64,000 bases of DNA from Candidatus Hydrogenedentota bacterium (GCA_020848835.1 JADLHJ010000011.1:10862-74861), one strand, 5' to 3'; shown: positions 14,973-44,579, counted from the first letter of the stretch. Numbers and translations are program-made. The notes: generated by a model not told the origin, from the sequence alone.

Positions 14973-14983
14973 GTAGCAGTAAC

Positions 14984-23333: not shown

Positions 23334-24815
23334 TTATTCTGCCACGGTGATGGCAAGCGTAGGCCGCCCTCTCTCGCCGGAAATTGCCGACGCCCAATAC
23401 CACGCACTCGCGTCGGGCCACGATTCTGTGTCTTTGAGCCAATCGTTCAATTCGCCGCCTTGGGGGTGGTCCCAGTTCAGCGCGATATAACATTCACGCA
23501 CACTTGTCTGGCTGCCATCCGGGCCTCGATACCAAAACCTGCTCCAGAGGCGTCCGGCCTCGTCGCGAAATGTCGGCTGTGGCGTGCATGTTCCGCCCTG
23601 GGCAAGATAGCAGTTTTGCGCTGAGTGCAAGTCACGTGTCGGCCCATCGCATAATCGCAGCAGTACATGCCTCTTGCCGTCGTGCCACCGAAATTGTGCA
23701 GACTGGCCGGGCACGTCCTGAAGCCAGGCCTTCATAGCGCCGGTCTCTTCAACGGGCTCCAACCATTTACCGTTCCATGTTTGCGGCCATGCTATCGCGC
23801 GATGCGATACTTGCGACGGTTTTGATGCAGCTTCGCTTACGCCAGAACGCACACCCGCCACCACGCACCCCATCACAAAACATACCGAGAGCAATCTCCC
23901 GGCGGGCAGCCTTGGCCACACGAGGTGCCGTCTTGCGTCCAGCCTCTTCCAACTTCTGATTCCGTTTGCGATCACTAGAAGGAGCAACGCGCATTCCGCG
24001 AACACGATAATCCCTAAAACACCGTGCTCGGGATAGTCCGGCCCGATTCCTGCCACGTACAGCGTTGCCGCGCGGTGGGCGTTCCCGAAAATCGCAAGTG
24101 CAAAAGATATTGCTATTAGAAGCGCAGTGCGCAACGGATTAAATTGGTACAGCACTGCGACACCCGCGCCCATCGCGATTGACGCCGAAAGCATGCGCAC
24201 GCCACTGCATGGCGCGTCCACAAAAAACGTCGTCGCGCCGTTTGACAGCGCGGTCCCCTCCGCCCGAATTTCCGGCCCCAGCATGAACGCAGCGATGTTA
24301 CTCGACGCCACGCGCAATGGAAATCCGATGAAGAAATCGAGCGATGTCGCAACGTGGACACATAGCAGCATTAGCACCGCGATCCCCCACGCGCCCCGCC
24401 GCGATCTTGATGCGAGCGTTCCCATCATGGTGCATCCGACAATTCCAGCAGCCAACTCACACCGAACCAACTGAGGCGCAGTAGGCCAAGTCAGCGCATA
24501 CAACCCTAACAGCACAACCGCCGCGATCAACCAACCGCGCGCCGGGGCAACGCGCAAAGGACCGCCCGACGGGCCCGTGATCAGGAACAGCCACGCGCCA
24601 ACGGCGAACAGAGCGATGACCGCGCCCATCGGCGATCCCCACGGCGCAAACCAGCGTATCCACAACTCGGGCGCTGCGGCCCAGACCGCGGCGACACTTG
24701 CCAAGACCCAAGAGAAGCCAATCAAAGTTTGGAGCGCGACGCGCTGCGGCGGCACGATCTTTGGGTGTGCGTGCATCACCAGCACGTCAATTGCTTTATT
24801 GGCGGCAGAACCCAT
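23334..24815 (-). CDS. exosortase (EpsH/Xrt family) fused to a C-terminal EpsI-like domain
   Basis: Eight-TM core with active-site motif FFVDAPCSGVRMLSASIAMG (exosortase Cys-Ser-Gly-Arg). C-terminal about 190 aa carry an EpsI-like LHSAQNCYLAQGG motif (compare HSPxxCLPGxGW). ATG at 24815 lies 2 nt after the upstream stop (TGA AC ATG). Confidence 0.75.
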   Translation of the reverse strand: MGSAANKAIDVLVMHAHPKIVPPQRVALQTLIGFSWVLASVAAVWAAAPELWIRWFAPWGSPMGAVIALFAVGAWLFLITGPSGGPLRVAPARGWLIAAVVLLGLYALTWPTAPQLVRCELAAGIVGCTMMGTLASRSRRGAWGIAVLMLLCVHVATSLDFFIGFPLRVASSNIAAFMLGPEIRAEGTALSNGATTFFVDAPCSGVRMLSASIAMGAGVAVLYQFNPLRTALLIAISFALAIFGNAHRAATLYVAGIGPDYPEHGVLGIIVFAECALLLLVIANGIRSWKRLDARRHLVWPRLPAGRLLSVCFVMGCVVAGVRSGVSEAASKPSQVSHRAIAWPQTWNGKWLEPVEETGAMKAWLQDVPGQSAQFRWHDGKRHVLLRLCDGPTRDLHSAQNCYLAQGGTCTPQPTFRDEAGRLWSRFWYRGPDGSQTSVRECYIALNWDHPQGGELNDWLKDTESWPDASAWYWASAISGERGRPTLAITVAE

Positions 24816-24817
24816 GT

Positions 24818-27550
24818 TCACGCGCGCCTTAACTGCTGCCTGCGCTGGTAGGCCACCCACGCGAGCACAATACACACAACAACAATCAACGCCCACTCGT
24901 GTGGCTCCGGCACGCCGGGTATTGCCTCTTCGTTTTTCGTGGGATCAAGACCGTGCCGCGCGTATTGTTCCATCGTTTCAAGCACGACGGCGCCGGAGAG
25001 CGGCGTTACCAACCGCGCTTCAATGGCAACCTGACGGAGCGCGTCAATCTCGTTCGACTGGTGGCTCTGCACTGCTCGCATGACAGCATCATTCACGGCC
25101 AGTCGCACAAGATGGCTTGCAGGGGGCTCAATTGCGGTTTGCACCGCAGCGTCAGAGACACCCATGGCAAACTTCGCGGAAACGGATTCTGGGGATCGTA
25201 TTTTGACGACCTGCGAAATTGTTTCTTCCAACGATTCGAATATGGGCACACGCTCGATAATCGCGAGATCGCTGCATTGCTCCAATAAGCGGTTCGGCCC
25301 GGGGACGGCCTCTATCGAGAGTATCTTCACACTCGCGCCACCGCGTCTGCGCTCCCACTGCCGCAGTGGTTCAACGGAAGATAGTTCGACCGGCAACGGT
25401 CCATGAACCCAAATCACCGTACCGCCGCTACCCGCAATATCGCAGGCATGCACAAGCGCCGGCACCTGATCGCAACCGCCTACATACTCGCGCGACGCCA
25501 GCCACTCTCCCAGCGTGGTCGAAGGCGCTGACGATTTATCTTCATAAGTCTCGACCTTGCTTCCCGCAAGCACTGCATTAACATCGACGTCGTCAGGCAC
25601 AGACGACAGAATAGACTCCCAAGGGATGTTTGTATCGCGCATCGACGCCGATCCATCCACCACGAAGCATATCGGATGCTTGCTGCCCGCATTCGGCAAC
25701 TGGCGCGTCATCGTCGCTGATTGAGTTCCCAACGTACCGAGGAAAATATCGTCCGACGTATAGGAAGCAGATACATTGATCGTTCCAGCGTCTACGCGCT
25801 GAAGATCGTTTTCAGCCAATGCGCCGCGCAACGCAATACGCCCGGGCGCCGGCTCTTCCCACTGGAGCGATTTCGACGAAGCCTCGACACCGGCATCGCA
25901 TTCCACCCATACCCCATGTGAAAACTCCGGCGGAACCGTAAAATTGCGTTCGGAGATATACGGCAAACGCAGGTAGGATTTTCCGTCGCGCTCGACTATA
26001 GGCGCGGTAACGCCGATCTTCAGTTTCATCGTGCTGTGGGCATTGATCGGAAAACATTGCAGGAGCACCTTATCGGGACCGCACACATTTAGTAACGCAG
26101 GATCGCGCCGCTGCACGACTGCCACGCTTTGATACGCCTGGCGCACCTGGTCGCGCCCGCCAAACGCGGCTTCGCGTTCTTCCCCGTTAATCCAAAGCGT
26201 CAACCTGCTGGCAACGGCACCGTGCGGCAAGTCAATCTGTGCGCGGGCCTCGCGCTGCCTCCCGGACGCGTTGTTGAACTCAATCGTCCATTCCATATAG
26301 GCGAGGTGCGGCGATCCTTCCGCACCCAGGCGCATGATGTTTACATCCATCGTGCTCGCGTGCAGGGACAATCCGTGCACGCGGCCTGCAACACTGGTTC
26401 CGCCGATTTCGCTGTCAGTCACGCGAGCGTCTTCAAAATCCTCAGCCATCAGGGTGCGTGTACGAAACGTGCCGCGCGTGTCCGGTCGCGGCACGGCGTT
26501 ATATGGCACGCCTGTCACGCGAAAATACAAGTCGCGACAAGCGCCTTGGCGCGCAATGTCTTCGGCGGTCCAACGTCGCGTGGGCCCAATCCCGCGCACA
26601 ATCGGCGAATAACACGTCAACAACACCTGATGTTCGAGATGAAGGTTACGAATGAGGGCGATGCCGCGGTCGCGTTCAGAGGGATTCTCGCTCAGTGCCA
26701 TTGGAATCACTTGTGCGGCAATGAGCCGCGGCCCCGCGTAGATTGAACCCGCCGCAATCACCAACAGAGTGCCCGCAGCCGAATACCAGACTGCCTTAGC
26801 CCAGTGCGTGGAAGTTTCCGCGCGCAACCGGTAAAGCGCGCGCATTTGGAACAGGCCCGCAATGAGACAGAACAGCGGTGAAAAGCCCATTATCCCCAAG
26901 CCGAAAGCCAGAAGCGCAAAAACAGCGATCGGCAAAATAGGGATATACACCGCCGCATAAATCAGCGAGAGAGTTGTTGCGTATGCGTTGGCAAAAAATA
27001 CGGCGTTGTGCCAACGCGCGATCACCTGAGAACTTTCAGCGGGCTTGCGCGTAAGCATGTACAGGAAGACGTCTGTCGCAAGTATGGAAGCCAGCAGCAA
27101 GACGCCGGCGGCAAGGTGCCACGCGGTGGGAATCGGATCGGCGTACAACTCCGCCATGGCCCCCATCGAAAGCTCGAACATCAGGGAGAGCGCGGGAATG
27201 ACTAAACCACAGAGAATTACAAAACTGCGGCCGCTCACCGAATAGATCGGCCTCACTTTTTTCAACCGCTCCTCTACCGCAACGTGCGATCGCCCGTTGC
27301 CATTTGATCGCGCGACGCTATCGCCGGCGACGTCGGCAACCTGTTCTGGCGTGCCGATGCTGGCAATGGCATGTTTCACGTGGACGTCTGTGACGAGCAG
27401 TGGCGATTTACCTTCTGCTTCTGTGCGGATGTGTTGCTTCAGCCCGTCGACGATTTCGTCTGCGTCGTCGCCGTTTGCGCGCGACAACGCGTCTACCCGC
27501 GCGAGATATTCGTTCAGTTGCTTCTCGGCCTCGGGAGTCCATTGCGTCAT
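24818..27550 (-). CDS. HAAS(DUF1700)-like N-domain, multi-TM, VIT-like plus vWA, PEP-CTERM-tailed protein
   Basis: Residues 1-75 (AEKQLNEYLARVDALS...DEIVDGLKQHIRTE...IASIGTPEQVA) have the HAAS/DUF1700 pattern. About six TM helices at residues 105-285. VIT-like block at about 385-520 (TIEFNN, LWINGEE). vWA MIDAS DGSASM at 632-637. Terminal GVPEPHEWALIVVVCIVLAWVAYQRRQQLRRA is a PEP-CTERM-type sorting signal. Confidence 0.75.
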   Translation of the reverse strand: MTQWTPEAEKQLNEYLARVDALSRANGDDADEIVDGLKQHIRTEAEGKSPLLVTDVHVKHAIASIGTPEQVADVAGDSVARSNGNGRSHVAVEERLKKVRPIYSVSGRSFVILCGLVIPALSLMFELSMGAMAELYADPIPTAWHLAAGVLLLASILATDVFLYMLTRKPAESSQVIARWHNAVFFANAYATTLSLIYAAVYIPILPIAVFALLAFGLGIMGFSPLFCLIAGLFQMRALYRLRAETSTHWAKAVWYSAAGTLLVIAAGSIYAGPRLIAAQVIPMALSENPSERDRGIALIRNLHLEHQVLLTCYSPIVRGIGPTRRWTAEDIARQGACRDLYFRVTGVPYNAVPRPDTRGTFRTRTLMAEDFEDARVTDSEIGGTSVAGRVHGLSLHASTMDVNIMRLGAEGSPHLAYMEWTIEFNNASGRQREARAQIDLPHGAVASRLTLWINGEEREAAFGGRDQVRQAYQSVAVVQRRDPALLNVCGPDKVLLQCFPINAHSTMKLKIGVTAPIVERDGKSYLRLPYISERNFTVPPEFSHGVWVECDAGVEASSKSLQWEEPAPGRIALRGALAENDLQRVDAGTINVSASYTSDDIFLGTLGTQSATMTRQLPNAGSKHPICFVVDGSASMRDTNIPWESILSSVPDDVDVNAVLAGSKVETYEDKSSAPSTTLGEWLASREYVGGCDQVPALVHACDIAGSGGTVIWVHGPLPVELSSVEPLRQWERRRGGASVKILSIEAVPGPNRLLEQCSDLAIIERVPIFESLEETISQVVKIRSPESVSAKFAMGVSDAAVQTAIEPPASHLVRLAVNDAVMRAVQSHQSNEIDALRQVAIEARLVTPLSGAVVLETMEQYARHGLDPTKNEEAIPGVPEPHEWALIVVVCIVLAWVAYQRRQQLRRA

Positions 27551-27915
27551 GGTTTACCTTCCTTTTCCAACAAGCTGCCGATGTCGTTGGCCAATCCGCA
27601 CCAATAGGTCCGCATAGCATGCACGGTCCTACGTCCTTCATCGGTAAGAACGTAATATTTCCGCGCGGGACCGTTAGAGGATTCTTCGAGACGCGATGTG
27701 ATGAGGCCCGCACTGCGCAGGCGGGATAGGAGCGGATAAATGGTACCTTCGGTGATGACCAAAGCTTTGATGTTGGCGAGACGCTTCACTAGATCATAAG
27801 CGTACATCTCACCCTCGGCCAAAACGGCGACGATGCACAGCTCAAGCAATCCCTTCCGGACCTGGGTCACCCAATTGTCCAGGTCGAATGCAGTCGGCTT
27901 GGGCTCGGTATGCAT
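27547..27915 (-). CDS. PadR family transcriptional regulator
   Basis: Winged-helix motif LELCIVAVLAEGEMYAYDLVKRL...GTIYPLLSRLRSAGLI...KYYVLTDEGR. Overlaps the downstream gene by 4 nt (ATGA). Confidence 0.85.
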   Translation of the reverse strand: MHTEPKPTAFDLDNWVTQVRKGLLELCIVAVLAEGEMYAYDLVKRLANIKALVITEGTIYPLLSRLRSAGLITSRLEESSNGPARKYYVLTDEGRRTVHAMRTYWCGLANDIGSLLEKEGKP

Positions 27916-27951
27916 GTATTAATTCTAATACAAACTACCTTGTTATGCAAG
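27916..27951 (-). promoter_or_regulatory. candidate PadR operator palindromes abutting the padR start codon
   Basis: GTATTA-ATTC-TAATAC perfect palindrome at 27916-27931, directly 5' of the ATG. Second palindrome CCTTG-TTATG-CAAGG at 27937-27951. Confidence 0.3.
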
Positions 27952-28036
27952 GAAATCTTTCGCCGATAATGAAGCCCGGGACGCGGGGGTTACTCCCCGC
28001 CTCCCGGCTAATTACCACACCGCAAGAGACTTACGA

Positions 28037-28672
28037 CTATTTGGTGCGTTTTCGAAGACCCATCGCAGCGAGTCCCAGGCCGAGCAATCCGACAGTGGCC
28101 GGCTCTGGAACCACGCAACCGTTTAGGCTACCGGCATAGACACTGTCGTCGCAGGGACCTTGAGTCCATTTTACTGCGGCTGTGTTGCAGGAGAAGTCGT
28201 GGCATCCGCCAGTTGGCAGACCGGTGAAAAAGTCGAGCGTATCTAAATTGCTGCCAGTGACGAGGAAAGTTACGGTCACATCGTTTCCATTGGTGAGACC
28301 CCAGTTTCCCCAACCCATGTCGAACTCGTAGTCGTAGGTGCCGAAGGGGCCTGCGGTGGAATTGGGAGTAAGCGATGTGTTCGAAAGCGGGCCGTCGCTG
28401 AGAATAGACATCGACGTTACGTCGCTCGACACATTGAAATACAATTCGGAGAGCGTATAGTCGTTCGGCCAACTGGTCTGGTTGAATATCTGCATCGTCA
28501 ACACATTGCTGCCGGCGTCGAAGCCCCAGATCACTTCGGCGTCAAACACGCCTGCGTTCGGCTGATCGTTATCGCTCAACTGCCCGCTAAACAGAATGAC
28601 TTCCGCGTTCGCGGATAATGTGGCAATGGCGATCAGCGCCAATGTCAGGATGGGTAAATAACGTGTCTTCAT
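28037..28672 (-). CDS. PEP-CTERM sorting-domain protein
   Basis: Signal peptide. C-terminal VPEPATVGLLGLGLAAMGLRKRTK. Confidence 0.8.
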   Translation of the reverse strand: MKTRYLPILTLALIAIATLSANAEVILFSGQLSDNDQPNAGVFDAEVIWGFDAGSNVLTMQIFNQTSWPNDYTLSELYFNVSSDVTSMSILSDGPLSNTSLTPNSTAGPFGTYDYEFDMGWGNWGLTNGNDVTVTFLVTGSNLDTLDFFTGLPTGGCHDFSCNTAAVKWTQGPCDDSVYAGSLNGCVVPEPATVGLLGLGLAAMGLRKRTK

Positions 28673-28968
28673 GGCAACAGCCCCCTACTACGTACTACTT
28701 GTGTAAGTTGCGATGGCAACTACTGGGTTGAGGGGTAACAATTCGAGTGCCAAGTGTTCGTTCAGAATGCCATCCGCATCAGGTTTGCGGTGGCATTGCA
28801 CGTAAACAGCGCTACGCACTCACGTTGGAAAAATTCGGAGTTCGACATATTTGTGATATGCGAAAAATAGCGTAACGGAGATTATTTTATGCAGTTTATC
28901 AATACACGCGTAAGGTTGTGCACGGGTGATTAATCTGTAAACCTACGTAAAATTAGCTACTTTCTTGA

Positions 28969-29010
28969 TTGGAGAAAATAAATGAGGCGAAGTCCACAAG
29001 ACTTCGCCTC
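28969..29010 (-). terminator. rho-independent terminator after PEP-CTERM gene 29033..29815
   Basis: Minus strand reads GAGGCGAAGTC-TTGTG-GACTTCGCCTC (11-bp perfect stem) followed by ATTTATTTTCTCC. Confidence 0.6.
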
Positions 29011-29032
29011 CTCGTAATATACCGTGAATGTA

Positions 29033-29815
29033 TTAGGCGCGTTTCATGCGACGGCGCAAACCGGCCGCGGCGAGGCCGAGTCCGAGTAACGCGAGGCTGG
29101 AGGGTTCGGGAACAACGACTTGCACGTCGCCTTCCGTAATCGCCCACTCTTCAAATCCGCCGTTGTTGTTCTCGTTCACGCCGAAAAGCGAGTAGAGATA
29201 AACATACTCATCCCCAGTTGCGAACACGCTGCTCGGAACATAGAACAGCATGTCGCCACTGCCGCTACCACTGTTGAGATTCGCATCAACGAGGATATAT
29301 GAATCTTCCACTGCGTCAAGGTCGTAAACGAGCGTAGAGTCCGCCAAGTCGATAATGCCGGCTGTAAATGTCTCCGCACTCTGATTCGGCGTGCCCGACG
29401 TGAAGATCTGAATCTCATCCAGCGAAATAAAGGAGTCGCTACCCGACTGGTTCACGTCCAGAATAAATTCGCGATACTCGACACCATCGATTACGACAAC
29501 CGGGATATCCGTCAGTAAAAGTTCATGGTTGAAGTTGTCAGGCGCACCATTGTCGAGCGTTCCGTTTTCGGTGGTGTTATACGCCTGAACCGTGTCCGTA
29601 TTATTACCGATCTGCACAAAGCTATCGATCGTTCCAGTACCTGTTGCCTGCCCGTCCCACTGAAGAAACAAGGCGCCATTGACTTCGCCTTCGGACCCTA
29701 CAGTTGTAAGATCGACGGTTTCTGCTGAAACGACACCGGCGAAGGCCAACGCGCTCAGCATTAGAATTGTTGATTGAATTCCTCGCCGCATACTCATTTT
29801 CATCATCCTTTGCAT
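29033..29815 (-). CDS. PEP-CTERM sorting-domain protein
   Basis: C-terminal VPEPSSLALLGLGLAAAGLRRRMKRA. Signal peptide after MQRMMKMSMRRGIQSTILMLSALAFAGVVSA. Several in-frame ATGs lie between 29789 and 29815. Confidence 0.8.
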   Translation of the reverse strand: MQRMMKMSMRRGIQSTILMLSALAFAGVVSAETVDLTTVGSEGEVNGALFLQWDGQATGTGTIDSFVQIGNNTDTVQAYNTTENGTLDNGAPDNFNHELLLTDIPVVVIDGVEYREFILDVNQSGSDSFISLDEIQIFTSGTPNQSAETFTAGIIDLADSTLVYDLDAVEDSYILVDANLNSGSGSGDMLFYVPSSVFATGDEYVYLYSLFGVNENNNGGFEEWAITEGDVQVVVPEPSSLALLGLGLAAAGLRRRMKRA

Positions 29816-30129
29816 TGTGACACTTAGCAGCTCGCCCACACTGCGGATGAATGAGCAAACCGCATGCCGAAGGCTAATAACGGGCTTTGTACGCCGAAAT
29901 ATTGCTACGGAAATGTAAAAGGAACGCGCCAAGGCGAGTGACAACAATATCTTAGGAAAAACATAGGGGTATTGCCGGAAGGCGTAGGAAATCGTAGCGA
30001 AAACTCGTAGGAAATCACAACTGCATGCGATAAAGCCGACAAAGCCCTGATAAAGGTTATTCAGCGTTGCACAATAGTTTCATAGTATAGTTGTATATAT
30101 AAACAAATCAACCGCCCAAATCAATTCTA

Positions 30130-36400: not shown

Positions 36401-37940
36401 TGTCAGATGCATCGAGCACGACACGATAGTCCGCGTTATCTGGGATCGCGCCGCCGGATGTCAGCGCGAGCAACCGCGCACTGCGACGCCCGCGGATGCG
36501 ATGGTTGATCTTGTCGTGATGAATCAGCGCGGCGCGGCGTCCGCGCTTCGTGCTGAAACCCTCCGCGAGCATGCAGACGACTTTATCGAATTCCTCGCGC
36601 GCGAGATTGCGATACGGCCACGCGCGGCGAATAAGGTCGAACACTTCGTTTTCATCGAGATCGTCGTTGCCCGCCATCGCAACGATCTGTTGCGCGAGGA
36701 CATCCAGCGGCTTCTCAGGAACGAGCAACCGATCGAGATCGCCGCGTTGTACCGCGCGCAGCAACGCAACGCATTCGACCAATTCATCGCGCGTGAGCGG
36801 AAACAAACGTCCTTTGGGCAACCCGCCGAGCCGATGTTCCGCACGCCCCACGCGTTGCAGAAAAGCGGCAATGGATCGCGTCGATCCCAACTGACACACG
36901 AGATCGACCGACCCAATATCGATACCGAGTTCCAGCGAAGCCGTCGCCACCAGCGCTTTCAGCTCGCCGCGCTTCAGGCGATCTTCCGCGTTCAACCGCA
37001 ACTCTGCAGACAAACTGCCATGATGCGACGTAACGAATTCTTCGCCGATCAATTCGCCAAGCTGCCGCGTGACGCGTTCCGCCATTCTGCGCGTGTTCAC
37101 GAATACTAGCGTGGTCTTGTGCGCTTCAATCAGCGCCGCGATACGTTTGTAGACCTCTTCCCAAACCTCGTTCGACATCACCGCTTCGAGCTGCGACCCC
37201 GGCAGTTCGAGCGCGAGATCCATCTTGCGCTTGTGGCCCACGTTAACAATTGCGCAATCCGGTTCGTTCGCCGAATTCACGGCACGCGCGCCGACAAGGA
37301 ATCGCGCGACTTCTTCAATCGGCTTCTGCGTCGCGGACAGGCCAATTCGTTGCAACGGCCGGCCCGTCAACGTTTCGAGGCGTTCGATGCTCAAGGCAAG
37401 ATGCGATCCGCGACGGTCGTCCGCAATCGCGTGAATCTCATCGACAATCAACGTCCGCACCGTGCGCAACATCGCGCGCCCCGACTGGGAAGTCAGCAAA
37501 AGGTAGAATGATTCAGGCGTGGTCACCACAATGTGCGGCGGCTTCTTGATCAGCGCGCGCCGCGCCGCCGCCGAAGTGTCCCCCGTTCGCACCTCCGCCC
37601 GCACATCAACCGCACGGCCATCCATCGCAAGAAACGCCGCGCGAATTCCCTCCAACGGCTCCTGCAGATTTTTGCGGATGTCATTCGACAGTGCCTTCAA
37701 CGGCGAGACGTAAACGACACGCGTTTCGTCTGGCAACGGCGATTCCGCGCCCTCGCGAAACAGGGTATCGAGCGACGCAAGAAAAGCCGAAAGCGTCTTA
37801 CCGGAACCCGTCGGCGCAGCGATCAACACATGCCGGCCCGACTGAATCGCCGGCCAGCCCAATGCCTGCGGCTCAGTAGGCCCGGCAAAGGTCCGCGAAA
37901 ACCACCGCATCACGGCGGGATGAAATTGAAACGTGTTCAT
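33495..37940 (-). CDS. lhr: Lhr-like large ATP-dependent DEAD/DEAH-box helicase
   Basis: Walker A AAPTGSGKT. DEIH box LIVDEIHAIADDRRG. 1481-aa length typical of Lhr. Confidence 0.85.
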   Translation of the reverse strand: MNTFQFHPAVMRWFSRTFAGPTEPQALGWPAIQSGRHVLIAAPTGSGKTLSAFLASLDTLFREGAESPLPDETRVVYVSPLKALSNDIRKNLQEPLEGIRAAFLAMDGRAVDVRAEVRTGDTSAAARRALIKKPPHIVVTTPESFYLLLTSQSGRAMLRTVRTLIVDEIHAIADDRRGSHLALSIERLETLTGRPLQRIGLSATQKPIEEVARFLVGARAVNSANEPDCAIVNVGHKRKMDLALELPGSQLEAVMSNEVWEEVYKRIAALIEAHKTTLVFVNTRRMAERVTRQLGELIGEEFVTSHHGSLSAELRLNAEDRLKRGELKALVATASLELGIDIGSVDLVCQLGSTRSIAAFLQRVGRAEHRLGGLPKGRLFPLTRDELVECVALLRAVQRGDLDRLLVPEKPLDVLAQQIVAMAGNDDLDENEVFDLIRRAWPYRNLAREEFDKVVCMLAEGFSTKRGRRAALIHHDKINHRIRGRRSARLLALTSGGAIPDNADYRVVLDASDTFIGTVNEDFAVESMAGDIFQLGNTSWRILGINASTVRVEDAKGQPPGIPFWLGEAPSRTDELSRAVSQLREECGRILIGSAEAIGSGGSAVELSAPRQANTSGNLTEWLCAELNGMLPRHGAEQLASYFADAYRTLGVIPSQHTLVLERFFDESGGMQLVLHSPYGNRINRAWGLALRKRFCRSFNFELQAAATEDAIVISLGTQHSFPLEDVFRYLHANTVREVLVQALLDAPMFTIRWRWNATRSLAIPRRRGNARLPAPLQRMEAENLMAAVFPDQLACLEHIVGDREVPDHPLITQTIEDCLTEAMDIDGLEAVLRRMEAGVIRCIARDLPEPSVFAHEILNAKPYAFLDNAPLEERRTQAVYTRRASEPARGDELGALDIAAIKKVQADAWPDASNADELHDALMMVGVMSEEEIRRTVRARDESLELDANRVLDELIAQRRVAMARLGEMTYYTASERVPMLRVIFGGAFDAAFVPEVGEWSNTREEAVRELVRGRIEVSGPITVAALSRAIYIAASDIEIALVALEGEGFVLRGHFRPDAEETEWCDRRLLARIHRMTIDRLRSEIQAVSAHEYLRFLFAWQHVDSEHRLNGPHGVETIIELLDGCELPLSAWEPEVISARVGDYKSHHLDRLCFSGRAGWGRFTAPQNGVAKMFAPLRSSPMALYLRESLHDWLQLSSGPQTAELPANARRVFDALNKSGAQFFTEIVRSSGLLPVQVEQSLAELASLGIVTADGFDGLRALLVPSDKRPTLGRNEGRRHAKTNIASVEHAGRWSLLRPAWADAPPLSDARTYSVSPETQAAQERFARTLLRRYGVVFRRLLEREAFNVTWYDLARIYRRWEARGEIRGGYFVSGVSGEQFALPEAVGTLRSLRRKEAKGELVTISAADPLNLVGIVTPGARVSSLTNNRLLFQDGTPIAALEANQLRMLETARDIGITQIENALRVGKLAVGMRPYYG

Positions 37941-38009
37941 AAGTGAGGCTCTACACGCGAAAATTGCAGCAGCCTTATTCTACCGCGAAAAGTTGAATCT
38001 CCCAAAGGA

Positions 38010-38036
38010 GCACGGGCGTCCCGCCCGTGATTGACC
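38010..38036. repeat. dispersed hairpin repeat family A, copy 2
   Basis: Identical 27-mer to 277..303, here in the divergent lhr/ECF-fusion intergenic region. Confidence 0.6.
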
Positions 38037-38314
38037 GCAACGATTACAGCATGCCGTCACAACAACGACCCCACCGCGATCCGCCGCAATGCGAGACTAA
38101 TTGTCCTCTAATTTTCCTCGTATTCTTGCTTAGACGCAGCTTTAGTCAATTAAACAGGGGTCGTTTCGCAGAACTAGTCGCGCGAAAACAGTATCTGTCA
38201 ACCGTTTCTCCCTTGATTTCCATTGCCAAGTCAGCGCCCAAAGTGCAACGCACTGGGCAAGTAACTAGAGGTAAGTCAGCAAGAATCGCAGAGTAGAGAA
38301 ATGCGACAGCTCCC

Positions 38315-41300
38315 ATGTCACACTTTTGCCCCGCCATGGCACATGATAGGTGCAAGGAGACAAGGGCAGTGCTGGGTATTGCGCGAAATAACGATGTTGA
38401 GCTGATCCGGAGGACACTGTCAGGACAACGCGACGCGTTTGGTTTGCTGGTGGATCGCTATCTGCGTTTTGCCTATGCCATCGCGTACGCACGGGCGCAC
38501 TCGCGTACGGATGCCGACGACGTTGTCCAAGACTCCTTCCTCACCGCTTACCAGCAACTGAATACCCTTCGCGAACCCGCACGGTTCTCCGCGTGGCTGG
38601 CCACGATCGTGCGCAGGTTGTCTGGAAAATCGAACCAGCGCGCGCGACTCGCCGAGTCGGCGGAATCAGCCGCGGCGCCAAGCGAGTTAGTCCATCCAGA
38701 ACACGAACGCGATGAACTCCGCGCACTTATCCGCACGGAAGTACAAGCGTTGGATGAATCGGACCGCGAAGTCATTCTGCTCTGCTACTTCGCAGGCAAG
38801 TCCGCGGGCGAAATTGCAGCGGCACTGGATTCTACCCCCGCGGCGATTCGTAAACGCCTCCAGCGCGCCCGCGAAAAACTCGGCGAGCGGCTCCTCTCGT
38901 CCATCGCTGAAACGTCCAAACCAAATACTGACGCAAACAAACAGATCATGGGCGTTATCGCTGCGGCGCCTACAGTGTGGAACGTGACAACGTCCAGCAC
39001 AGGCGTGTTAACAACAGGAGGCGCATTTGCAATGAAAGTCGCGGCCGTTTTAGCAGTGGTTCTGGCTCTGGGCGGCGGCGCCTACAGTTTGCGCAACCGG
39101 AGTCTTGACGCAAATAAGCCGTCCGCGCCAACGCAATACGCAAAAACTTCTTCGACTTCTGCCCCCAGACAAGTGCCGAAAGCTGATACTGAAGTCGCGA
39201 CAAATGAAGCAGATAAAGCCGCAGATAAATGGGTATCCGTCGCTCCTAAATATCCCTTTCGCTTCGAAGCTATTGTGCTCGATCCGAATGGAGAGATTGC
39301 GGTAGACGTTCCGGTCCAAATCAGAGTGCTCGAAAGATACTCGCCATCCTTCAATGGGACGGATAGGGTCATTGCCGAAGCTTCCGTGAGAAGCGACGAA
39401 AACGGTTGTGTTGTTGCGCAACTAGAGAGCGGGCCGCAGTCAGATCAAGGCTATGTCTACATCGAGCTCTCTGCGCAACGAGATACTACAGGCCGCTATA
39501 CAAAAGCGATGTTTTCACAGTCAACAACGAGACTCTACGCGCTTCAACTCATATCATTGGGAACCATTCGCGGACTGGTGCGAGATGCTCTGGGCAACCC
39601 CATCGAGAATGCTCGCATAGAACCACGCGCCTACGATCGTCCAGATGGTCAATCTCACATGTATCAATGGAACGAAAGCGGCGTCGTCACTGCCAATGAC
39701 GGCACTTTTAGAATTGACCACCTGTACGCTGGTCGTTGGCAATTCCAAATCATTGCCGACGGTTTCGCGCCCAAGTTGACCGAGTTCATTCCGACCGAAT
39801 CAAACCTTGAGATAACGCTGGATCCGGGTCTTCGTCTGGCAGGAACGCTCATCGACGACGCTTCTGGAAACGTAGCTCCCAACGTACGCTTGCAACTCTC
39901 TTCGAAACAGATGTGGCAGGAGCGACATCAATCGACTACAGACTCGAATGGCCACTTTACCTTTTCCTCGCTGAGCAGTGGTGTGTATCAATTGAATACA
40001 GATGATCACCCCCACTACATCGCGCTGGAGCAAAGCGAAATCACAGTGCAGAATTCGGTCGAAGACTTGGCGATTCACCTTGAAACTGGTGGAATCATCA
40101 CTGGCCAACTTGTTGATGCGGATTCGCAGAAAGGCATTGCGGGCACAAAAGCCGTGGCGAATCTTACTGCGTCATCGCAAACGAAACACCCAAGAAACCG
40201 TTCGGAGGCCACGACGGACAAAAACGGGAATTATCAAATTGAAGGACTTCCCTCGGGCGAATATAAGGTGATGTTCTGGTCACCCGACGCGTTACCTAAA
40301 GCAACACCAGAATCAATCCAATTGATGCCCACTACGAACATTGCGGCGGGCAAGACGGTCGAGTTACATGCCCACGCCATTGACCGCCGAAACCAAATTC
40401 GAGGTAATGTGCGCACGATAGACGGCAAAGCCATTCAAGGGATATATGTCTTCGCAGTCGCCCTCGATCATCCGGAGTGGTACGACCCCACCATTATTTC
40501 TTTCAACGGCGTGAGGACCGATGAACACGGTACATTTGTAATTTATCTTCCCGGGACTTCGCAAAACACTTTCGTTATTGCAAGAGGTCTTGGATTTGCC
40601 ACTCGAGAATCAGGCCCGTATATCGTCCATGGCCAGCCAGACGATGCGATAAATCTCATCGCATATCCCGTTGGCCGAATACTTGGTCAGGTAATCGATT
40701 CGCGCGGCGCACGAATTTCCCGGGCACGGTTTACATACCGGGGATCGGCTTCGCCGTTGCAGCAGACCAACACCAAACCCGGTTCTTCCAATAGTTTGAA
40801 TAGACTGCTTGAACGAGATCAATTATCCGAAGACGGTAATTTTTATCTTACGAATCTTCCTCCTGACACTTACACCTTTGAATACAAAGGAAGTTCGACA
40901 TCCGCAACTCTCGAACAAGCCAAGACGCTTCGAAGTTTTAGTATTTCGGCGGCCCCTTTGGGTAGCGCGATCCTTTCTGGAAACGTCACGATCAAGAAGG
41001 TAGCGGCAGAAGACGTGCTCATTCAGATATTGGGAGGGACCGAAGGAAGCAGTAGTGAGACTAAAACCAATGCCTATGGAAACTTTTCACAGGTTGATAT
41101 GCCCGAAGGCGAATATAATCTAATCATAAATTGCCGGGACGACGCAGACGGTGCGCGCATTGTGCGTCGTTCATCTACAAAAGTGACTCTTCCCGCGTCA
41201 GGCACGACGACGCTCAATACGGACTTCGCAACGGGTGATTGTGGAATCGAGGGACATATTAAAGAGAATGGGAAAGCGGTACGCGCCGAATTTTACATGG

Positions 41301-41833
41301 TTGAAGCGCTGCCAGATGATCGAGACGAGACAATTAGCGTTACGGCAAATGACAAGGGATACTATCGCGTGACGGGACTGAGGCCCGGTGAGCACGTAAT
41401 TCGGCTAATGCGGAAGGCCCCTTCCGATCCGAATCAACGTTACGAAACACCTTTCAAAGTCGAACTGCAATCCGGCCAAATACTGAACCATGATATTTCG
41501 TTTGGTACGGGTTCGATAGTAGCGGCGTGCTCGGGCGTACGCGCCGGGTTTGATGGACGACTTCTAATTGTACCGGGAGAGAACAATACCGAAAACATGA
41601 CGCTGTTAGGCGCGTATTCGCTAATTGAAAAGGCAATCTATGACAAAGAAATCACAACGGACGAAACACTAATCGCGAAAGAGGTGCCGGAAGGACCTTA
41701 CACAGTCTTGTGGGCAACTTACGATGCAAAGGCTGAAACCGATGAAGCGCGTTTCGCCTCGACCGAGTTCATAGCCGCGATAGCGATTGTGGAAACGGGA
41801 CAGGAAACAAAGATGCAGCTTTCGCTTCGTTGA
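38315..41833 (+). CDS. ECF sigma-70 factor fused to a TM helix and a large extracytoplasmic CarboxypepD_reg-like repeat region
   Basis: Sigma region 2 (VVQDSFLTAYQQL). Region 4 HTH (LDESDREVILLCYFAGKSAGEIAAALDSTPAAIRKRLQRAREKL). A TM helix MKVAAVLAVVLALGGGAY at about residue 240. About 900 aa follow with repeated GxxxGxVxDxxGxPI blocks. Confidence 0.7.
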   Translation: MSHFCPAMAHDRCKETRAVLGIARNNDVELIRRTLSGQRDAFGLLVDRYLRFAYAIAYARAHSRTDADDVVQDSFLTAYQQLNTLREPARFSAWLATIVRRLSGKSNQRARLAESAESAAAPSELVHPEHERDELRALIRTEVQALDESDREVILLCYFAGKSAGEIAAALDSTPAAIRKRLQRAREKLGERLLSSIAETSKPNTDANKQIMGVIAAAPTVWNVTTSSTGVLTTGGAFAMKVAAVLAVVLALGGGAYSLRNRSLDANKPSAPTQYAKTSSTSAPRQVPKADTEVATNEADKAADKWVSVAPKYPFRFEAIVLDPNGEIAVDVPVQIRVLERYSPSFNGTDRVIAEASVRSDENGCVVAQLESGPQSDQGYVYIELSAQRDTTGRYTKAMFSQSTTRLYALQLISLGTIRGLVRDALGNPIENARIEPRAYDRPDGQSHMYQWNESGVVTANDGTFRIDHLYAGRWQFQIIADGFAPKLTEFIPTESNLEITLDPGLRLAGTLIDDASGNVAPNVRLQLSSKQMWQERHQSTTDSNGHFTFSSLSSGVYQLNTDDHPHYIALEQSEITVQNSVEDLAIHLETGGIITGQLVDADSQKGIAGTKAVANLTASSQTKHPRNRSEATTDKNGNYQIEGLPSGEYKVMFWSPDALPKATPESIQLMPTTNIAAGKTVELHAHAIDRRNQIRGNVRTIDGKAIQGIYVFAVALDHPEWYDPTIISFNGVRTDEHGTFVIYLPGTSQNTFVIARGLGFATRESGPYIVHGQPDDAINLIAYPVGRILGQVIDSRGARISRARFTYRGSASPLQQTNTKPGSSNSLNRLLERDQLSEDGNFYLTNLPPDTYTFEYKGSSTSATLEQAKTLRSFSISAAPLGSAILSGNVTIKKVAAEDVLIQILGGTEGSSSETKTNAYGNFSQVDMPEGEYNLIINCRDDADGARIVRRSSTKVTLPASGTTTLNTDFATGDCGIEGHIKENGKAVRAEFYMVEALPDDRDETISVTANDKGYYRVTGLRPGEHVIRLMRKAPSDPNQRYETPFKVELQSGQILNHDISFGTGSIVAACSGVRAGFDGRLLIVPGENNTENMTLLGAYSLIEKAIYDKEITTDETLIAKEVPEGPYTVLWATYDAKAETDEARFASTEFIAAIAIVETGQETKMQLSLR

Positions 41834-41839
41834 GGCGAA

Positions 41840-43528
41840 TCAATCAATCCCTTCTCGCTTCATCAGACGCCACAATGTCGTGCGGCCGATGCCGAGGAGT
41901 TCGGCGGCTTCGGAGCGATTGCCGCGGGTTCGTTTGAGCATGGCGCGGAGCACGTCGCCATTGAGTTCTTGTGAGGGCCGTACTGAACGGAACGATATGA
42001 TTTCTTCGGGCAGGTCTTCGATACCGAGCTCGCGGTTCGGCCCGAAGACGACGGAGTGATCGATCGTATTCTTGAGTTGCCGTAGATTCCCTGGCCACGC
42101 ACAGTCAAGCAAGGCCTGCTTGAACTCCTTCGAGAACTGCGCAGCGGGACGATCATATTTGTCCCGCGCGTCTACCATGAACAAGTGCGCGAGTGGAAGC
42201 ACGCAATCGAGGCGATCGCGCAGAGGCGGCACATCGATGCGGCCGATGGCGATTGCGTAGTAAAGGTCCTCGCGGATTTTACCGTGCGCCAATTGCGTCT
42301 GCGGATCGTACTGCGTCGCGGCAATCACGCGGATATCCGCCTTTGCCGGCTCTTCCGAACCGAGCGGTGTGACAATCTTATCCTCCATTGCCCGCAACAA
42401 CAGGCCCTGCGCTTCAGGCGTCAGGTGCGTGATCTCGTCGAAGTAGATCGTACCCTTGTTTGCCCGGGCCAGCGCGCCCACGTGTCCTCGCGACGCGCCT
42501 TGAAAAGCACCCTGCGCAAACCCGGCGAGCTCTTGTACCAACAACGATGCGGCCAGCGATCGGCAATCGACGACTTCGAAAGAACCCGCCTTACGCCCAC
42601 TGGCGAGATGGATCGCCTTGGCGAGGGTGGCACGGCCCGTCCCCGGTTCGCCGACGATGAGTACTGGCACGTCGGATACCGCGACCTGCTTGGCGCGGCG
42701 CATCACCGCCTGCATATTCTCGGAATCTGCAATGAGACTGTCTAGCAAGAGGTCGCTTTTGAGCCTGCGCTGCAACGCTTGTAGCGCAGCGTTCGAGCGG
42801 CTTGCCGCTTCTCTGTATTGGTTCGCTTGCTCGTCGCGGGCGGCGAAATCAACCTCGATGGAATCCGTCTTGAACGCATTCCGCGCCCAGTCGGCCTCTT
42901 CGCCCCATTCGTTCTCGAACCGCGCCAGAATCCGGCAAGGGCCTTTGTTGGAGGCTGCGCAGGACTTTTCCAAGGCAATGACCCTGCGCCCGAGGACTTC
43001 CGAGGTATGGCCCGCCAGGTAACCGCAGGTTGTCCAGCAGACCGATTCGGCAGGTTCGGTGGTGACGAGGCGGTGGACGGTGGCTTCCGTACAAGATTGG
43101 AGGGCGATTTCCCTGTAAAGTGTATTTGACTCCAGGTCGTACTCGAATCGGACAGGTTCCGCGACTACTTTTCCCAGCATTTGGGCGAAAACGCAGACAG
43201 CCTGGAGCGCCAAACGCACATTCCCCTCGTATTGCTCCAGGTGACGAAGCGCGTCGCGGCGGCCTTGCTCGAAGCCTATCCGGTAGAAAAGGGCGCGGGC
43301 CCTATCTCGTCCCAGCATTTGGAGGATTTGGCGGCGTTGAACTGCCATAGACTCGACATCTTCAAAGACGCCGACCCGCCCCATGAAGCTGACCTTACCC
43401 GAGGGAGGGCTGGTCTCTATCCAACTGGTTCGGGTGTTTTCGAGGTAGTGGCCGAGAACGGGTGGTAAATCGAGGAAGACTTGTGCGCTAAGACGGGTCG
43501 GACGCTTGATCATGTGGTGTGCCCCCAA
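41840..43528 (-). CDS. sigma-54-dependent transcriptional activator with XylR-N/V4R-like sensor (no receiver domain)
   Basis: AAA+ core VLIVGEPGTGRATLAKAIH and GAFQGA box. C-terminal Fis HTH AAELLGIGRTTLWRLMK. N-terminal about 230 aa resemble the XylR/DmpR sensor. Confidence 0.8.
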   Translation of the reverse strand: MGAHHMIKRPTRLSAQVFLDLPPVLGHYLENTRTSWIETSPPSGKVSFMGRVGVFEDVESMAVQRRQILQMLGRDRARALFYRIGFEQGRRDALRHLEQYEGNVRLALQAVCVFAQMLGKVVAEPVRFEYDLESNTLYREIALQSCTEATVHRLVTTEPAESVCWTTCGYLAGHTSEVLGRRVIALEKSCAASNKGPCRILARFENEWGEEADWARNAFKTDSIEVDFAARDEQANQYREAASRSNAALQALQRRLKSDLLLDSLIADSENMQAVMRRAKQVAVSDVPVLIVGEPGTGRATLAKAIHLASGRKAGSFEVVDCRSLAASLLVQELAGFAQGAFQGASRGHVGALARANKGTIYFDEITHLTPEAQGLLLRAMEDKIVTPLGSEEPAKADIRVIAATQYDPQTQLAHGKIREDLYYAIAIGRIDVPPLRDRLDCVLPLAHLFMVDARDKYDRPAAQFSKEFKQALLDCAWPGNLRQLKNTIDHSVVFGPNRELGIEDLPEEIISFRSVRPSQELNGDVLRAMLKRTRGNRSEAAELLGIGRTTLWRLMKREGID

Positions 43529-43624
43529 GCCGCAAGAGTCTAACAGCTACTTGATGGAAAATCAAGTGTTTCAGTAGAAACATGACGGATGTGAGGATAG
43601 TGATAGGAGCGCGAGGCGAGAATT

Positions 43625-43655
43625 ACATCCCCCTGAATCCCCCTTCTAAGGGGGA
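43625..43655. repeat. dispersed repeat family B, copy 2
   Basis: ACATCCCCCTGAATCCCCCTTCTAAGGGGGA with a perfect CCCCCTT/AAGGGGG hairpin. Lies about 95 nt 5' of the sigma-54 activator ATG. Confidence 0.55.
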
Positions 43656-43697
43656 CTAAGATGGTTAGTGCGGGCGTAATTGCAATGAACCGGTCAA

Positions 43698-44579
43698 TCA
43701 TTTTGTGGGTGCCGATTCCGTCTGCTTCTTGAGGCGGAGGTGGCGTTTCTTCATTCCGCTGAGGATAATCCAGAGGATGATGCCCGCCACTGAAGCGGCA
43801 AGTGCCATCACCTGCTGATCCGTGAGGCCGAAAAGGTGAACCGGGTTGCCGTCGTCGCGGAGCATTTCGATGCCAAAGCGGCCGATTCCGTAGAAGATGA
43901 AGTAGTAACAGGCGGTAGAACCGTGAAAGGGACGGCAGTACTTGCGAAGAGTAATTAATAATATACACAAAAACAATAGGCCGGCGCTGCTGTAAAGCTG
44001 TGTGGGGTGTACGTGATAGGACCATTGATCGACTGCGGGGTCGAGGCCGAAGCGGTGTACATGGTCCATGAACGCCGGGCTGCCTGTATAGGACTTCGTG
44101 GTGTCAAAGGGCACACGGGGAAAGCTGATCCCCCAGGGGACATCCGTGCGGGCACCGTAGCAACAGCCGTTGAGAAAGCAGCCGAGCCGACCGATTGCAT
44201 GGCCCAGTGCAAGGCAGGGTACGGCGAGATCGGCGAGCGTCCAGAAGGGCATCTTGTGCTTGCGCGTCCAGTAATAAAGAAACGCAACGGCAGGCGGAAT
44301 GGCGCCCTGGAAGACGAGTCCCCCATTCCAGATCGCGAACCAGCCGAGCGGGTCACGCCATGAAAAGTCCTCCGGGAACATCATGATAAAGGCCACGCGG
44401 GTCCCGGCGATGGCGAGCAACAAGACCCAGAATGCGGCATCGGCGATCTTATCGGGGTCAAGGCCGTACTTGGGAGCGTGGCGGCGCGCGAGGAAAAGGC
44501 CTGCGAGAAATCCAAGGGCGAGCATTAGCCCATAGGAATGGACAGGAAGAGGACCAAGCTTCAAAAGGACAGGGTACAT
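43698..44579 (-). CDS. lgt: prolipoprotein diacylglyceryl transferase
   Basis: MYPVLLKLGPLPVHSYGLMLALGFLAG start. Lgt signature region around GRLGCFLNGCCYG. Confidence 0.85.
   Translation of the reverse strand: MYPVLLKLGPLPVHSYGLMLALGFLAGLFLARRHAPKYGLDPDKIADAAFWVLLLAIAGTRVAFIMMFPEDFSWRDPLGWFAIWNGGLVFQGAIPPAVAFLYYWTRKHKMPFWTLADLAVPCLALGHAIGRLGCFLNGCCYGARTDVPWGISFPRVPFDTTKSYTGSPAFMDHVHRFGLDPAVDQWSYHVHPTQLYSSAGLLFLCILLITLRKYCRPFHGSTACYYFIFYGIGRFGIEMLRDDGNPVHLFGLTDQQVMALAASVAGIILWIILSGMKKRHLRLKKQTESAPTK

Follow-up and report, generated by a model that had tools for sequence, protein, structure and literature searches.

How tethering to the membrane could by itself silence a sigma factor is the question raised by a gene that lacks any recognizable anti-sigma domain. 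The gene lies in a 64,000-nucleotide stretch of DNA from Candidatus Hydrogenedentota bacterium (GCA_020848835.1 JADLHJ010000011.1:10862-74861), which at its full length is called the window here. Sigma factors of the extracytoplasmic function (ECF) type form the third major way in which bacteria transduce signals, and nearly all mechanistic knowledge of them comes from pairs of sigma and anti-sigma factors; to our knowledge, a single covalent membrane-tethered hybrid, IutY, has been studied so far. The gene in the window encodes, in one polypeptide, an ECF sigma factor complete with sigma2 and sigma4, a linker of ~40 amino acids (aa), one transmembrane (TM) helix, a disordered stalk and ~10 beta-sandwich domains. 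We find that it is a member of a large paralogous family expanded in the Hydrogenedentota, in which the chassis of sigma factor, linker and TM helix is conserved and the sensor ectodomain is exchangeable.

The open reading frame (ORF) at 38315-41833 on the plus strand is uninterrupted and measures 1172 aa when counted from the first ATG, just as the first-pass annotation of this DNA had claimed, although its probable start has to be shifted. Translation probably begins at the GTG at 38369, 54 nt downstream of the ATG at 38315, because a Shine-Dalgarno (SD) sequence, AAGGAGA at 38354-38360 and 8 nt ahead of the GTG, is kept in the orthologous loci L001 (GCA_020846215.1) and L002 (a Logan run), because the orthologues and the NCBI gene model of 1154 aa share the N-terminus MLGIARNN, and because the ATG at 38315 is a TTG in L001. 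Residue numbers refer to this 1154-aa protein throughout, unless 1172-aa numbering is stated. The nr entry that is 100% identical to the window protein comes from a metagenome-assembled genome (MAG) of Candidatus Hydrogenedentes, where it lies on a 139.9-kb contig, and it is annotated as "sigma-70 family RNA polymerase sigma factor" and nothing more. That sigma regions 2 and 4, a TM segment and a repeat region of the CarboxypepD_reg type follow one another in one polypeptide, also part of the initial description, is borne out by Pfam, TIGR02937 and hydropathy, which agree.

By its sigma2 and sigma4 content and its model score, the protein is placed in the ECF group (group 4) of the sigma-70 family. 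Pfam matches to Sigma70_r2 (aa 45-102, 1.7e-13) and Sigma70_r4_2 (aa 138-189, 3e-11; both in 1172-aa numbering) are joined by a score of 81.3 bits for the NCBIfam ECF model TIGR02937, against a cut-off of 42.9. In profile alignments, sigma2 and sigma4 match SigW (3.7e-32), RpoE, SigH and CnrH over their full length and end at about profile position 175; the best alignments are those with SigW and RpoE, and the CnrH structure 4cxf was matched as well. Among the 25 best matches listed, all NCBIfam subfamily and equivalog models for ECF sigma factors, including those for SigW and RpoE, were far under their cut-offs, as were TIGR02989 of the Rhodopirellula/Verrucomicrobium family (70 versus 124.55) and TIGR02984, the Planctomycetaceae-specific subfamily 1 (47.2 versus 183.75). 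At the amino acid level, sigma2 and sigma4 are 97% and 87% identical to the orthologue P0002, versus merely 60% identity at third codon positions, which argues for strong purifying selection on the sigma module, and by sequence criteria the module should be functional. The sigma region has one cysteine (C139). Position 85, at the end of sigma2, is a serine here; it is a cysteine in 24% of the family and in 30/30 of the Poribacteria-type fusions described below, and all other columns of the family sigma alignment have less than 8% cysteine.

The initial description had considered such fusions rare, and within this lineage this did not hold. An exhaustive phmmer search with the sigma, linker and TM part as the query, with matches clustered into representatives at 50% identity, returned 298 representatives at E ≤ 1e-30. 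The best 150 of these are nearly all 600 to 1400 aa long, with matches that extend across the linker and the TM helix, and 121 of the 148 relatives analysed have at least 600 aa. Among the 47 closest full-length representatives, all 47 carry sigma2 and sigma4 and 38 carry CarboxypepD_reg repeats; other ectodomains found on the same chassis are a PQQ_2 propeller, Big_5 and peptidase M16. Family members whose source is named all come from Hydrogenedentes/Hydrogenedentota, and there are several copies per genome, with one 11.7-kb contig carrying two fusions of 902 and 1162 aa. Within the window, a tblastn search with the sigma and ectodomain parts matched only the gene itself. The next relatives in reference genomes, which were scanned with a generic sigma2 pattern that misses the Hydrogenedentota members, are from Candidatus Poribacteria and one Planctomycetota MAG, at 27 to 38% identity. 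These are proteins of 450 to 1050 aa with a TM helix at aa ~215-250 and propellers of the WD40 or BNR/Sortilin type. In contrast, Bacteroidota, Proteobacteria, Acidobacteriota and Firmicutes have, at comparable identity, ordinary ECF sigma factors of ~190 aa. On the Poribacteria contigs (L007, L010, L013, L014 and L015) and the Planctomycetota MAG contig (L009), two to three sigma-TM-propeller genes of ~700 to 1050 aa each stand in tandem, and L013:2878-12704 holds three in a row.

A worry attached to the initial description was that a frameshift at 38950-39060 might have merged two genes. This junction reads through, collinear and with an unchanged frame in comparison with 11 homologues and 144 representatives, and more than 140 fused collinear representatives come from independent NCBI, ENA, JGI and Logan assemblies. 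The short family members that were inspected are truncations. The sole split copy found, P0055, is a 243-aa sigma ORF on the long-read contig L086, which is itself frameshifted. In L086:301-4045, CarboxypepD_reg fragments lie behind the sigma ORF and in frames other than its own, the mark of a sequencing-indel artefact or a pseudogene. These comparisons refute the worry and indicate that, in this family, the fused state is the native one and the split state the artefact.

The part between sigma4 and the membrane is short. The linker (aa 181-218) has ~38 residues, with one short helix and neither cysteine nor histidine. Its helix, KQIMGVIAAAPTVW, is preceded by a basic patch and is the most conserved feature beyond the sigma domains, with I or V at position 193 in 91% and W204 in 91% of the 144 representatives; a similar helix stands ahead of the TM segment in the Poribacteria-type fusions. 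With low confidence, AlphaFold2 (AF2) models aa 187-199 as a helix. The conserved helix is followed, on the membrane side, by a segment of ~13 residues rich in Ala, Ser, Thr and Gly and then by Gly-Gly. A Kyte-Doolittle scan of the 1172-aa ORF gave one hydrophobic segment (aa ~235-258 in 1172-aa numbering), which corresponds to the helix AFAMKVAAVLAVVLALGGGAY; of 148 relatives, 140 have a TM segment in the equivalent position, and its start has a median of aa 218. Its Ala/Gly-rich composition, with Gly positions that are conserved in the alignment of the 144 representatives, would be compatible with the substrates of intramembrane proteases. Beyond it, P251 in the stalk is conserved in 84% of the representatives.

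No room is left in this linker for a class I anti-sigma domain, which has ~80 to 90 residues in four helices, and no Pfam match to one was found. Anti-sigma Pfam families, zf-HC2 included, gave no match at E ≤ 10 in the sigma4-TM linkers of ten family members, and AF2 gave no confident docking of the linker helix on the sigma domains, the score for local model confidence (pLDDT) being 50 to 58 when the N-terminal alignment was used and under 50 in the model of the whole protein. The label "sigma/anti-sigma-like" that the first-pass annotation gave to this architecture is therefore not supported. Its other label, a one-component sigma factor, is a fair description, because a single polypeptide is made and no separate anti-sigma gene adjoins the fusion.

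The ectodomain matches Pfam CarboxypepD_reg (PF13620) in seven stretches, with 3.3e-48 and 162 bits against a cut-off of 32.3. The AF2 model of aa 297-1152 is all-beta, with ~10 consecutive sandwich domains and a pLDDT mostly of 80 to 90, and its Foldseek neighbours are the TIE protein, BcpA, Cna-B repeats and PitA, each with probability 1.00, along with SdrD-B and the macroglobulin (MG) domains of alpha2-macroglobulin. The ectodomain is therefore predicted to be of an extracytoplasmic type, built from Cna-B/prealbumin-like sandwiches such as those in Gram-positive pilins and adhesins and in alpha2-macroglobulins. It contains no enzymatic domain, and the Pfam scan of the extension gave CarboxypepD_reg, SdrD_B and SpaA-like families and no WD40 match. 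A self-BLAST of the ectodomain gave no internal hits, the sandwiches being too diverged, so the array is not a recent repeat expansion. The membrane-distal tip (aa 1001-1154) has no Pfam match at E ≤ 1, is conserved up to the C-terminus in a collinear subfamily of 1155 to 1178 aa, and is a candidate for the sensing or ligand-binding end. Members of this subfamily align with the window protein end to end (P0017, for example, is 31% identical over 893 aa), and with a median length of 888 aa in the best 148 relatives, the earlier impression that the ectodomain is unusually large was not upheld within this lineage.

That the ectodomain is exchangeable can be seen at the orthologous locus itself. 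The upstream region and the sigma-coding part (38142-38907) share 79 to 85% DNA identity with L001 and L002, and the stretch holding the downstream sigma54-dependent activator and lgt (41844-44510) is 82% identical to the orthologous loci. DNA homology stops at 38907, and nothing is shared until 41844. In place of the 2.9-kb sandwich array of the window, L001:2008-3751 and L002:768-2508 carry a TM helix and a PQQ_2 beta-propeller, in proteins of 726 to 729 aa. Past sigma4, identity to P0002 falls to 38 to 42% in the linker and 20% beyond the TM helix, with 65% in the TM helix itself, and the GC content at third codon positions (GC3), which is 0.68 to 0.70 in the neighbouring genes, amounts to 0.64 for the sigma part and 0.50 for the ectodomain part. 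The simplest reading is that the cassette of linker, TM helix and ectodomain was replaced by recombination behind a fixed sigma chassis, with a breakpoint that would fall somewhere between aa 180 and ~245.

How would such a protein work? The best-supported model, and one that we consider reasonably probable, is a membrane-tethered ECF sigma factor that is freed by regulated proteolysis. The complete sigma factor would be cytoplasmic and tethered by the ~40-residue linker and an N-in/C-out TM helix to an extracytoplasmic part of ~915 residues, and while held at the membrane it would presumably be inactive. Once a signal acts on the ectodomain (the binding of a ligand or surface, unfolding or proteolytic attack), the ectodomain would be trimmed (site 1), after which an RseP-type site-2 protease would cut the Ala/Gly-rich TM helix, and a sigma factor of ~24 kDa would be released and redirect RNA polymerase. 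We infer the inactive tethered state, the proteolytic release, the nature of the signal and the existence of a regulon from IutY and from the regulated intramembrane proteolysis of anti-sigma factors. The need for proteolytic release had been proposed from the start, and by analogy with IutY it would still be the most plausible route of activation. As for the signal, the Cna-B/MG-like array suggests that macromolecules of the envelope or from outside the cell are bound by the ectodomain or come into contact with it, and ~10 domains of ~4 nm each could be long enough to span the periplasm.

Several observations weigh against this model. The positive-inside rule is not clearly followed, with Arg and Lys on the C-terminal side of the TM helix, and the N-in/C-out topology is derived from domain logic and not from a predictor. 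The confidence of AF2 is low for the linker and the TM helix in both the N-terminal and the full-length models. No genes for site-1 or site-2 proteases (M50, PDZ or Prc) are present in the 64-kb window; such genes are normally unlinked. Seven upstream regions share no consistent motif resembling AAC-N16-17-CGT that could be an autoregulatory or shared ECF-type promoter, and no target promoter was identified. Finally, a conserved internal SD sequence and ATG at the entry of the TM helix mean that the locus may be more than a simple sensor with a single product.

This internal signal is the basis of the strongest alternative. The Gly-Gly pair ahead of the TM helix is encoded A-GGA-GG-C, and an in-frame ATG-AAA opens the hydrophobic segment. 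The nucleotide statistics are drawn from the DNA of 80 further metagenomic family loci, whose sequences are related, so that the p-values overstate independence. An SD core of at least 5 nt stands ahead of 8 of the 11 TM-entry ATG-Lys sites, compared to 1% of 287 other internal ATGs; in the window, such a core precedes just 0.2% of 842 internal start-like codons. Of 16 "GG-x2-4-MK" motifs, 12 have GGA as the codon of the first Gly, versus 16% of 886 other Gly codons in the same genes (binomial p = 3.5e-7), and the third position of the second Gly varies freely. The use of GGA is also linked to the Met that follows: it is found in 16 of 24 Gly-Gly pairs with an in-frame Met 2 to 4 codons on, and in 1 of 12 without such a Met in the same region (Fisher p = 0.001). 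These numbers show a constraint at the nucleotide level that is coupled to the TM-entry ATG and is a feature of a subclade that includes the window gene.

The alternative that follows is that one ORF could give two products, with an internal start at Met222 yielding a sigma-less, signal-anchored or secreted ectodomain of 933 aa, or else that the signal is the still-selected start, kept as a relic, of a once separate downstream gene that was joined to the sigma gene. The shorter isoform could serve in bulk as a structural or binding protein, or it could partner the fused copy, the "sentinel." The elements are arranged as in a start site (an SD sequence of 6 nt, a 10-nt spacer, ATG-AAA and a hydrophobic run), the selection for GGA acts at the codon level, and SD sequences of the GGAG(G) type are used at some genuine starts in the window, such as those of fabI and of the fusion's own GTG. 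Against this, Met-Lys at the TM entry is found in only 24 of 144 representatives, and the motif in 18 to 24 (~12 to 17%, according to whether one counts GG-x-MK or just MK), so it is inessential to the function of the family; the relatedness of the sequences makes the statistics not fully independent, and Gly-Gly and Lys at the entry of a TM helix can also be explained at the protein level. We regard two products as a serious possibility that falls somewhat short of probable. It is compatible with proteolytic release, which it would modify and not exclude. A more elaborate combination, rather unlikely as a whole, is a two-in-one surveillance gene in which the internal SD sequence and ATG give a sigma-less, signal-anchored or secreted beta-sandwich envelope protein of ~98 kDa, a minor full-length isoform with the sigma factor attached serves as the sentinel whose cleavage frees the sigma factor and so reports damage to, or engagement of, the ectodomain population, and the cassette can be swapped by recombination.

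Tethering need not be the only thing that holds the sigma factor back. The juxtamembrane helix, with the signature given in Table 1, might be a minimal built-in anti-sigma element that folds back on sigma2 and sigma4 until the tether is cut or pulled, an idea that could coexist with release by proteolysis and that we consider unlikely. The helix might then be a remnant of the last helix of an anti-sigma domain of the kind present in ZAS-type (zinc-binding) anti-sigma factors, and short class II anti-sigma peptides such as CnrY can inhibit an ECF sigma factor. Its conservation, the highest outside the sigma domains, and its recurrence before the TM segment of the Poribacteria-type fusions would fit such a role, but AF2 leaves the helix undocked, at low confidence, it has no Pfam anti-sigma match, and as a hydrophobic segment it may merely lie at the membrane interface.

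It is less likely still that the sigma factor is active while tethered, in the manner of ToxR or CadC, with RNA polymerase recruited at the membrane and the ectodomain modulating activity through oligomerization or conformation. Sigma4 has a solvent-exposed C-terminus in those ECF holoenzymes that accommodate C-terminal extensions, for example ECF41 and ECF42. The linker also has its flexible segment of ~13 residues between the conserved helix and the TM helix, and ECF sigma factors of a Planctomycete have been found in detergent-soluble fractions (PMC8567305). However, IutY, the only hybrid studied experimentally, requires cleavage by RseP (PMC5411451). A linker of ~40 residues is also short for a sigma factor that has to enter a holoenzyme of ~400 kDa on DNA. 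We know of no precedent for a membrane-tethered sigma factor that is active.

An artefact, in which a sigma gene of ~200 aa and a downstream membrane-protein gene were merged by an error of sequencing or assembly, by a frameshift or by a chimera at repeated sigma sequence, is scarcely credible: the change in GC3 exactly past the sigma-coding part, the near-identical sigma segment that other assemblies link to a different 3' part and the internal SD sequence and ATG at the junction would fit it, but the collinear fused frame recurs across the independent assemblies named above, the linker and TM helix are typical of the family, the closest relatives of the ectodomain are likewise fused to sigma domains, synteny with L001 is kept in the downstream flank with the sigma54 activator and lgt, L001 and L002 stem from different samples at ~80% DNA identity and so are not the same genome, and the one split copy is a degraded long-read contig.

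The surroundings of the gene (Table 1) are those of a monocistronic unit, with a divergent Lhr helicase gene upstream and the convergent sigma54-dependent activator gene downstream. The latter is given as context only. No anti-sigma gene adjoins the fusion, and the contexts of P0009, P0011 and P0012 have nothing in common that would point to conserved partner genes. Only 6 nt (41834-41839) separate the stop codons of the fusion gene and the convergent activator gene, and a search of all of 37900-42100 gave no hairpin resembling a terminator; therefore, the two transcripts would overlap in antisense unless termination is unconventional. Upstream, the 53 nt ahead of the GTG (38316-38368) are almost invariant between genomes that are ~80% identical elsewhere. 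No Rfam match was found for this conserved leader and no sigma70-like promoter on the plus strand upstream of the fusion. A sequence resembling a sigma54 -24/-12 element, TGGCAC...GTGCA at 38337-38354, was considered in view of the nearby activator gene and rejected, with a GG-to-GC spacing of 14 and not 12 and an overlap with the SD sequence.

Table 1. Features of the fusion gene and its flanks in the window (residue numbers of the 1154-aa protein)
Feature	Position	Strand	Details
Conserved upstream region and 5' leader, including the SD sequence AAGGAGA	38142..38368	+	79-85% DNA identity to L001/L002, near-invariant blocks
Sigma-TM-ectodomain fusion, probable coding sequence	38369..41833	+	1154 aa and stop; 100% identical NCBI protein; conserved SD sequence
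Sigma2 domain, aa 9-100	38393..38668	+	PF04542; AF2 helices with pLDDT >90; profile alignment with SigW, RpoE, SigH, CnrH
Sigma4 domain, aa 112-180	38702..38908	+	PF08281, PF04545; AF2 pLDDT >90; 87% identical to orthologues
Exchanged module	38908..41843	+	No DNA homology to L001/L002; divergent codon composition
Juxtamembrane helix KQIMGVIAAAPTVW, aa 191-204	38939..38980	+	Signature [IV]-M-x-x-[IV]-A-x-x-P-x-x-W across 144 representatives
Internal element resembling a ribosome-binding site	39016..39034	+	AGGAGG at 39016-39021 (Gly217-Gly218), 10-nt spacer, ATG at 39032-39034 (Met222), then Lys and a hydrophobic run
Single TM helix AFAMKVAAVLAVVLALGGGAY, aa ~219-239, Ala/Gly-rich	39023..39085	+	Sole Kyte-Doolittle peak above 1.6
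Disordered Ser/Thr/Ala/Pro/Lys-rich stalk, predicted extracytoplasmic, aa 240-296	39086..39256	+	AF2 pLDDT 25-30
CarboxypepD_reg/prealbumin-like (Cna-B-like) array, ~8-9 domains, aa 297-1000	39257..41368	+	PF13620, PF13715, PF17210, PF17802; AF2
Membrane-distal C-terminal region, aa 1001-1154	41369..41830	+	Mostly beta with two short helices; AF2 pLDDT 85-93
Sigma54-dependent activator (XylR_N, Sigma54_activat, HTH_8)	41840..43528	-	Convergent; syntenic in L001 with Lgt
Lgt gene	43698-44579		Follows the sigma54 activator; syntenic in L001

Elsewhere in the window, a 1793-aa protein with four PSCyt1 stretches, PSCyt2 and PSD1 is followed by a DUF1501 protein (9591-16411, plus strand), a cytochrome/DUF1501 pair of the Planctomycete type in the Hydrogenedentota. 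At 23334-29947 on the minus strand, an exosortase (EpsH) gene adjoins the gene of a 910-aa protein with HAAS and VIT, and a PEP-CTERM protein is encoded near it (29033-29947); the EpsH and PEP-CTERM genes look like a PEP-CTERM/exosortase sorting system. An 830-aa protein with BACON_2 and von Willebrand factor A domains is encoded at 60478-62970 (plus strand).

The regulatory biology of these uncultured phyla is essentially uncharted. In the Hydrogenedentota, the covalent design of sigma factor, TM helix and sensor is dominant and highly paralogous and has no recognizable anti-sigma domain, and a related form is present in Poribacteria and Planctomycetota. The ectodomain swap is a natural exchange of sensor modules on a fixed output domain, which is of relevance to the evolution of such systems and to orthogonal synthetic sensors; if cassettes are indeed swapped, a lineage could rewire one transcriptional output to new inputs from the envelope. 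If the internal start is live, the abundance of a sensor would be coupled to its own reporter in a way that has not been reported.

How does this protein compare with systems that are already known? In the canonical pairs RpoE-RseA, SigW-RsiW and SigV-RsiV, the sigma factor is held by a single-pass N-in/C-out anti-sigma factor, the ectodomain of which senses the signal, and is set free through regulated intramembrane proteolysis. The likeness is that a cytoplasmic sigma factor is kept at the membrane via a single-pass protein with a sensing ectodomain; the difference is that the canonical link is a noncovalent anti-sigma domain wrapping sigma2 and sigma4, whereas the window protein has a covalent link and lacks an anti-sigma domain. 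ECF57, formerly named ECF01-Gob, resembles the window protein in having an ECF sigma factor with a very long beta-rich repeat extension and paralogues expanded in a lineage related to the Planctomycetes-Verrucomicrobia-Chlamydiae group. In the 2021 classification, this group comprises Planctomycete ECF sigma factors with long C-terminal extensions of WD40 repeats (PMC8999054, PMC8567305), and two conserved cysteines have been proposed to link sigma2 and sigma4 (PMC8999054). In contrast, the extension of the window protein is an array of CarboxypepD_reg sandwiches and not of WD40 repeats, and the cysteine pair of ECF57 is missing. The Poribacteria and Planctomycetota fusions found here share an equivalent chassis of sigma factor, linker and TM helix, with the latter at aa ~215-245.

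The actinobacterial groups ECF48, ECF52 and ECF53 (SCO4117, for example) combine an ECF sigma factor with a ZAS-like zinc finger, located between sigma4 and the membrane, and TM helices, with extensions of up to ~400 residues; the extracytoplasmic region of ECF52 is proline rich and carbohydrate binding, and proteolytic activation has been proposed (PMC8999054). Like them, the window protein is an ECF sigma factor fused C-terminally to a TM segment and an extracytoplasmic region, but it has no ZAS domain, its linker has no cysteine, and its extension is ~970 residues long. IutY of Pseudomonas putida, a hybrid of sigma and anti-sigma factor that acts in cell-surface signaling, belongs to ECF243 (PMC8999054). 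It is a sigma-TM-periplasmic hybrid that is freed by Prc and then RseP, and truncation of its periplasmic part leads to constitutive activity (PMC5411451; PMC8999054). Both proteins are one polypeptide with a cytosolic ECF sigma factor, one TM helix and a periplasmic domain and have no separate anti-sigma factor, and IutY is the model for the mechanism proposed here. The differences are that IutY has 374 aa, a FecR-type periplasmic domain and an adjacent TonB-dependent receptor, while the window protein has 1154 aa and ~10 sandwiches and comes from another phylum and another sigma clade. Pfam gave no FecR- or DUF4880-type match in the window protein, and no TonB-dependent receptor gene is near the fusion, the neighbours of which encode the Lhr helicase, the sigma54 activator and Lgt.

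We set the window protein apart from the IutY type, ECF48/52/53 and ECF57 by the described features of these groups and not by group models, and the separation is accordingly a provisional one. In the literature searched, no earlier description was found of ECF fusions from the Hydrogenedentota or of ECF fusions with CarboxypepD_reg arrays. ECF sigma factors fused to membrane-spanning C-terminal extensions are a recognized, little-studied class, which the window protein resembles, and the general design is already known; what is new here is a family expanded in the Hydrogenedentota of tethered ECF sigma factors that have no anti-sigma domain and carry exchangeable ectodomains.

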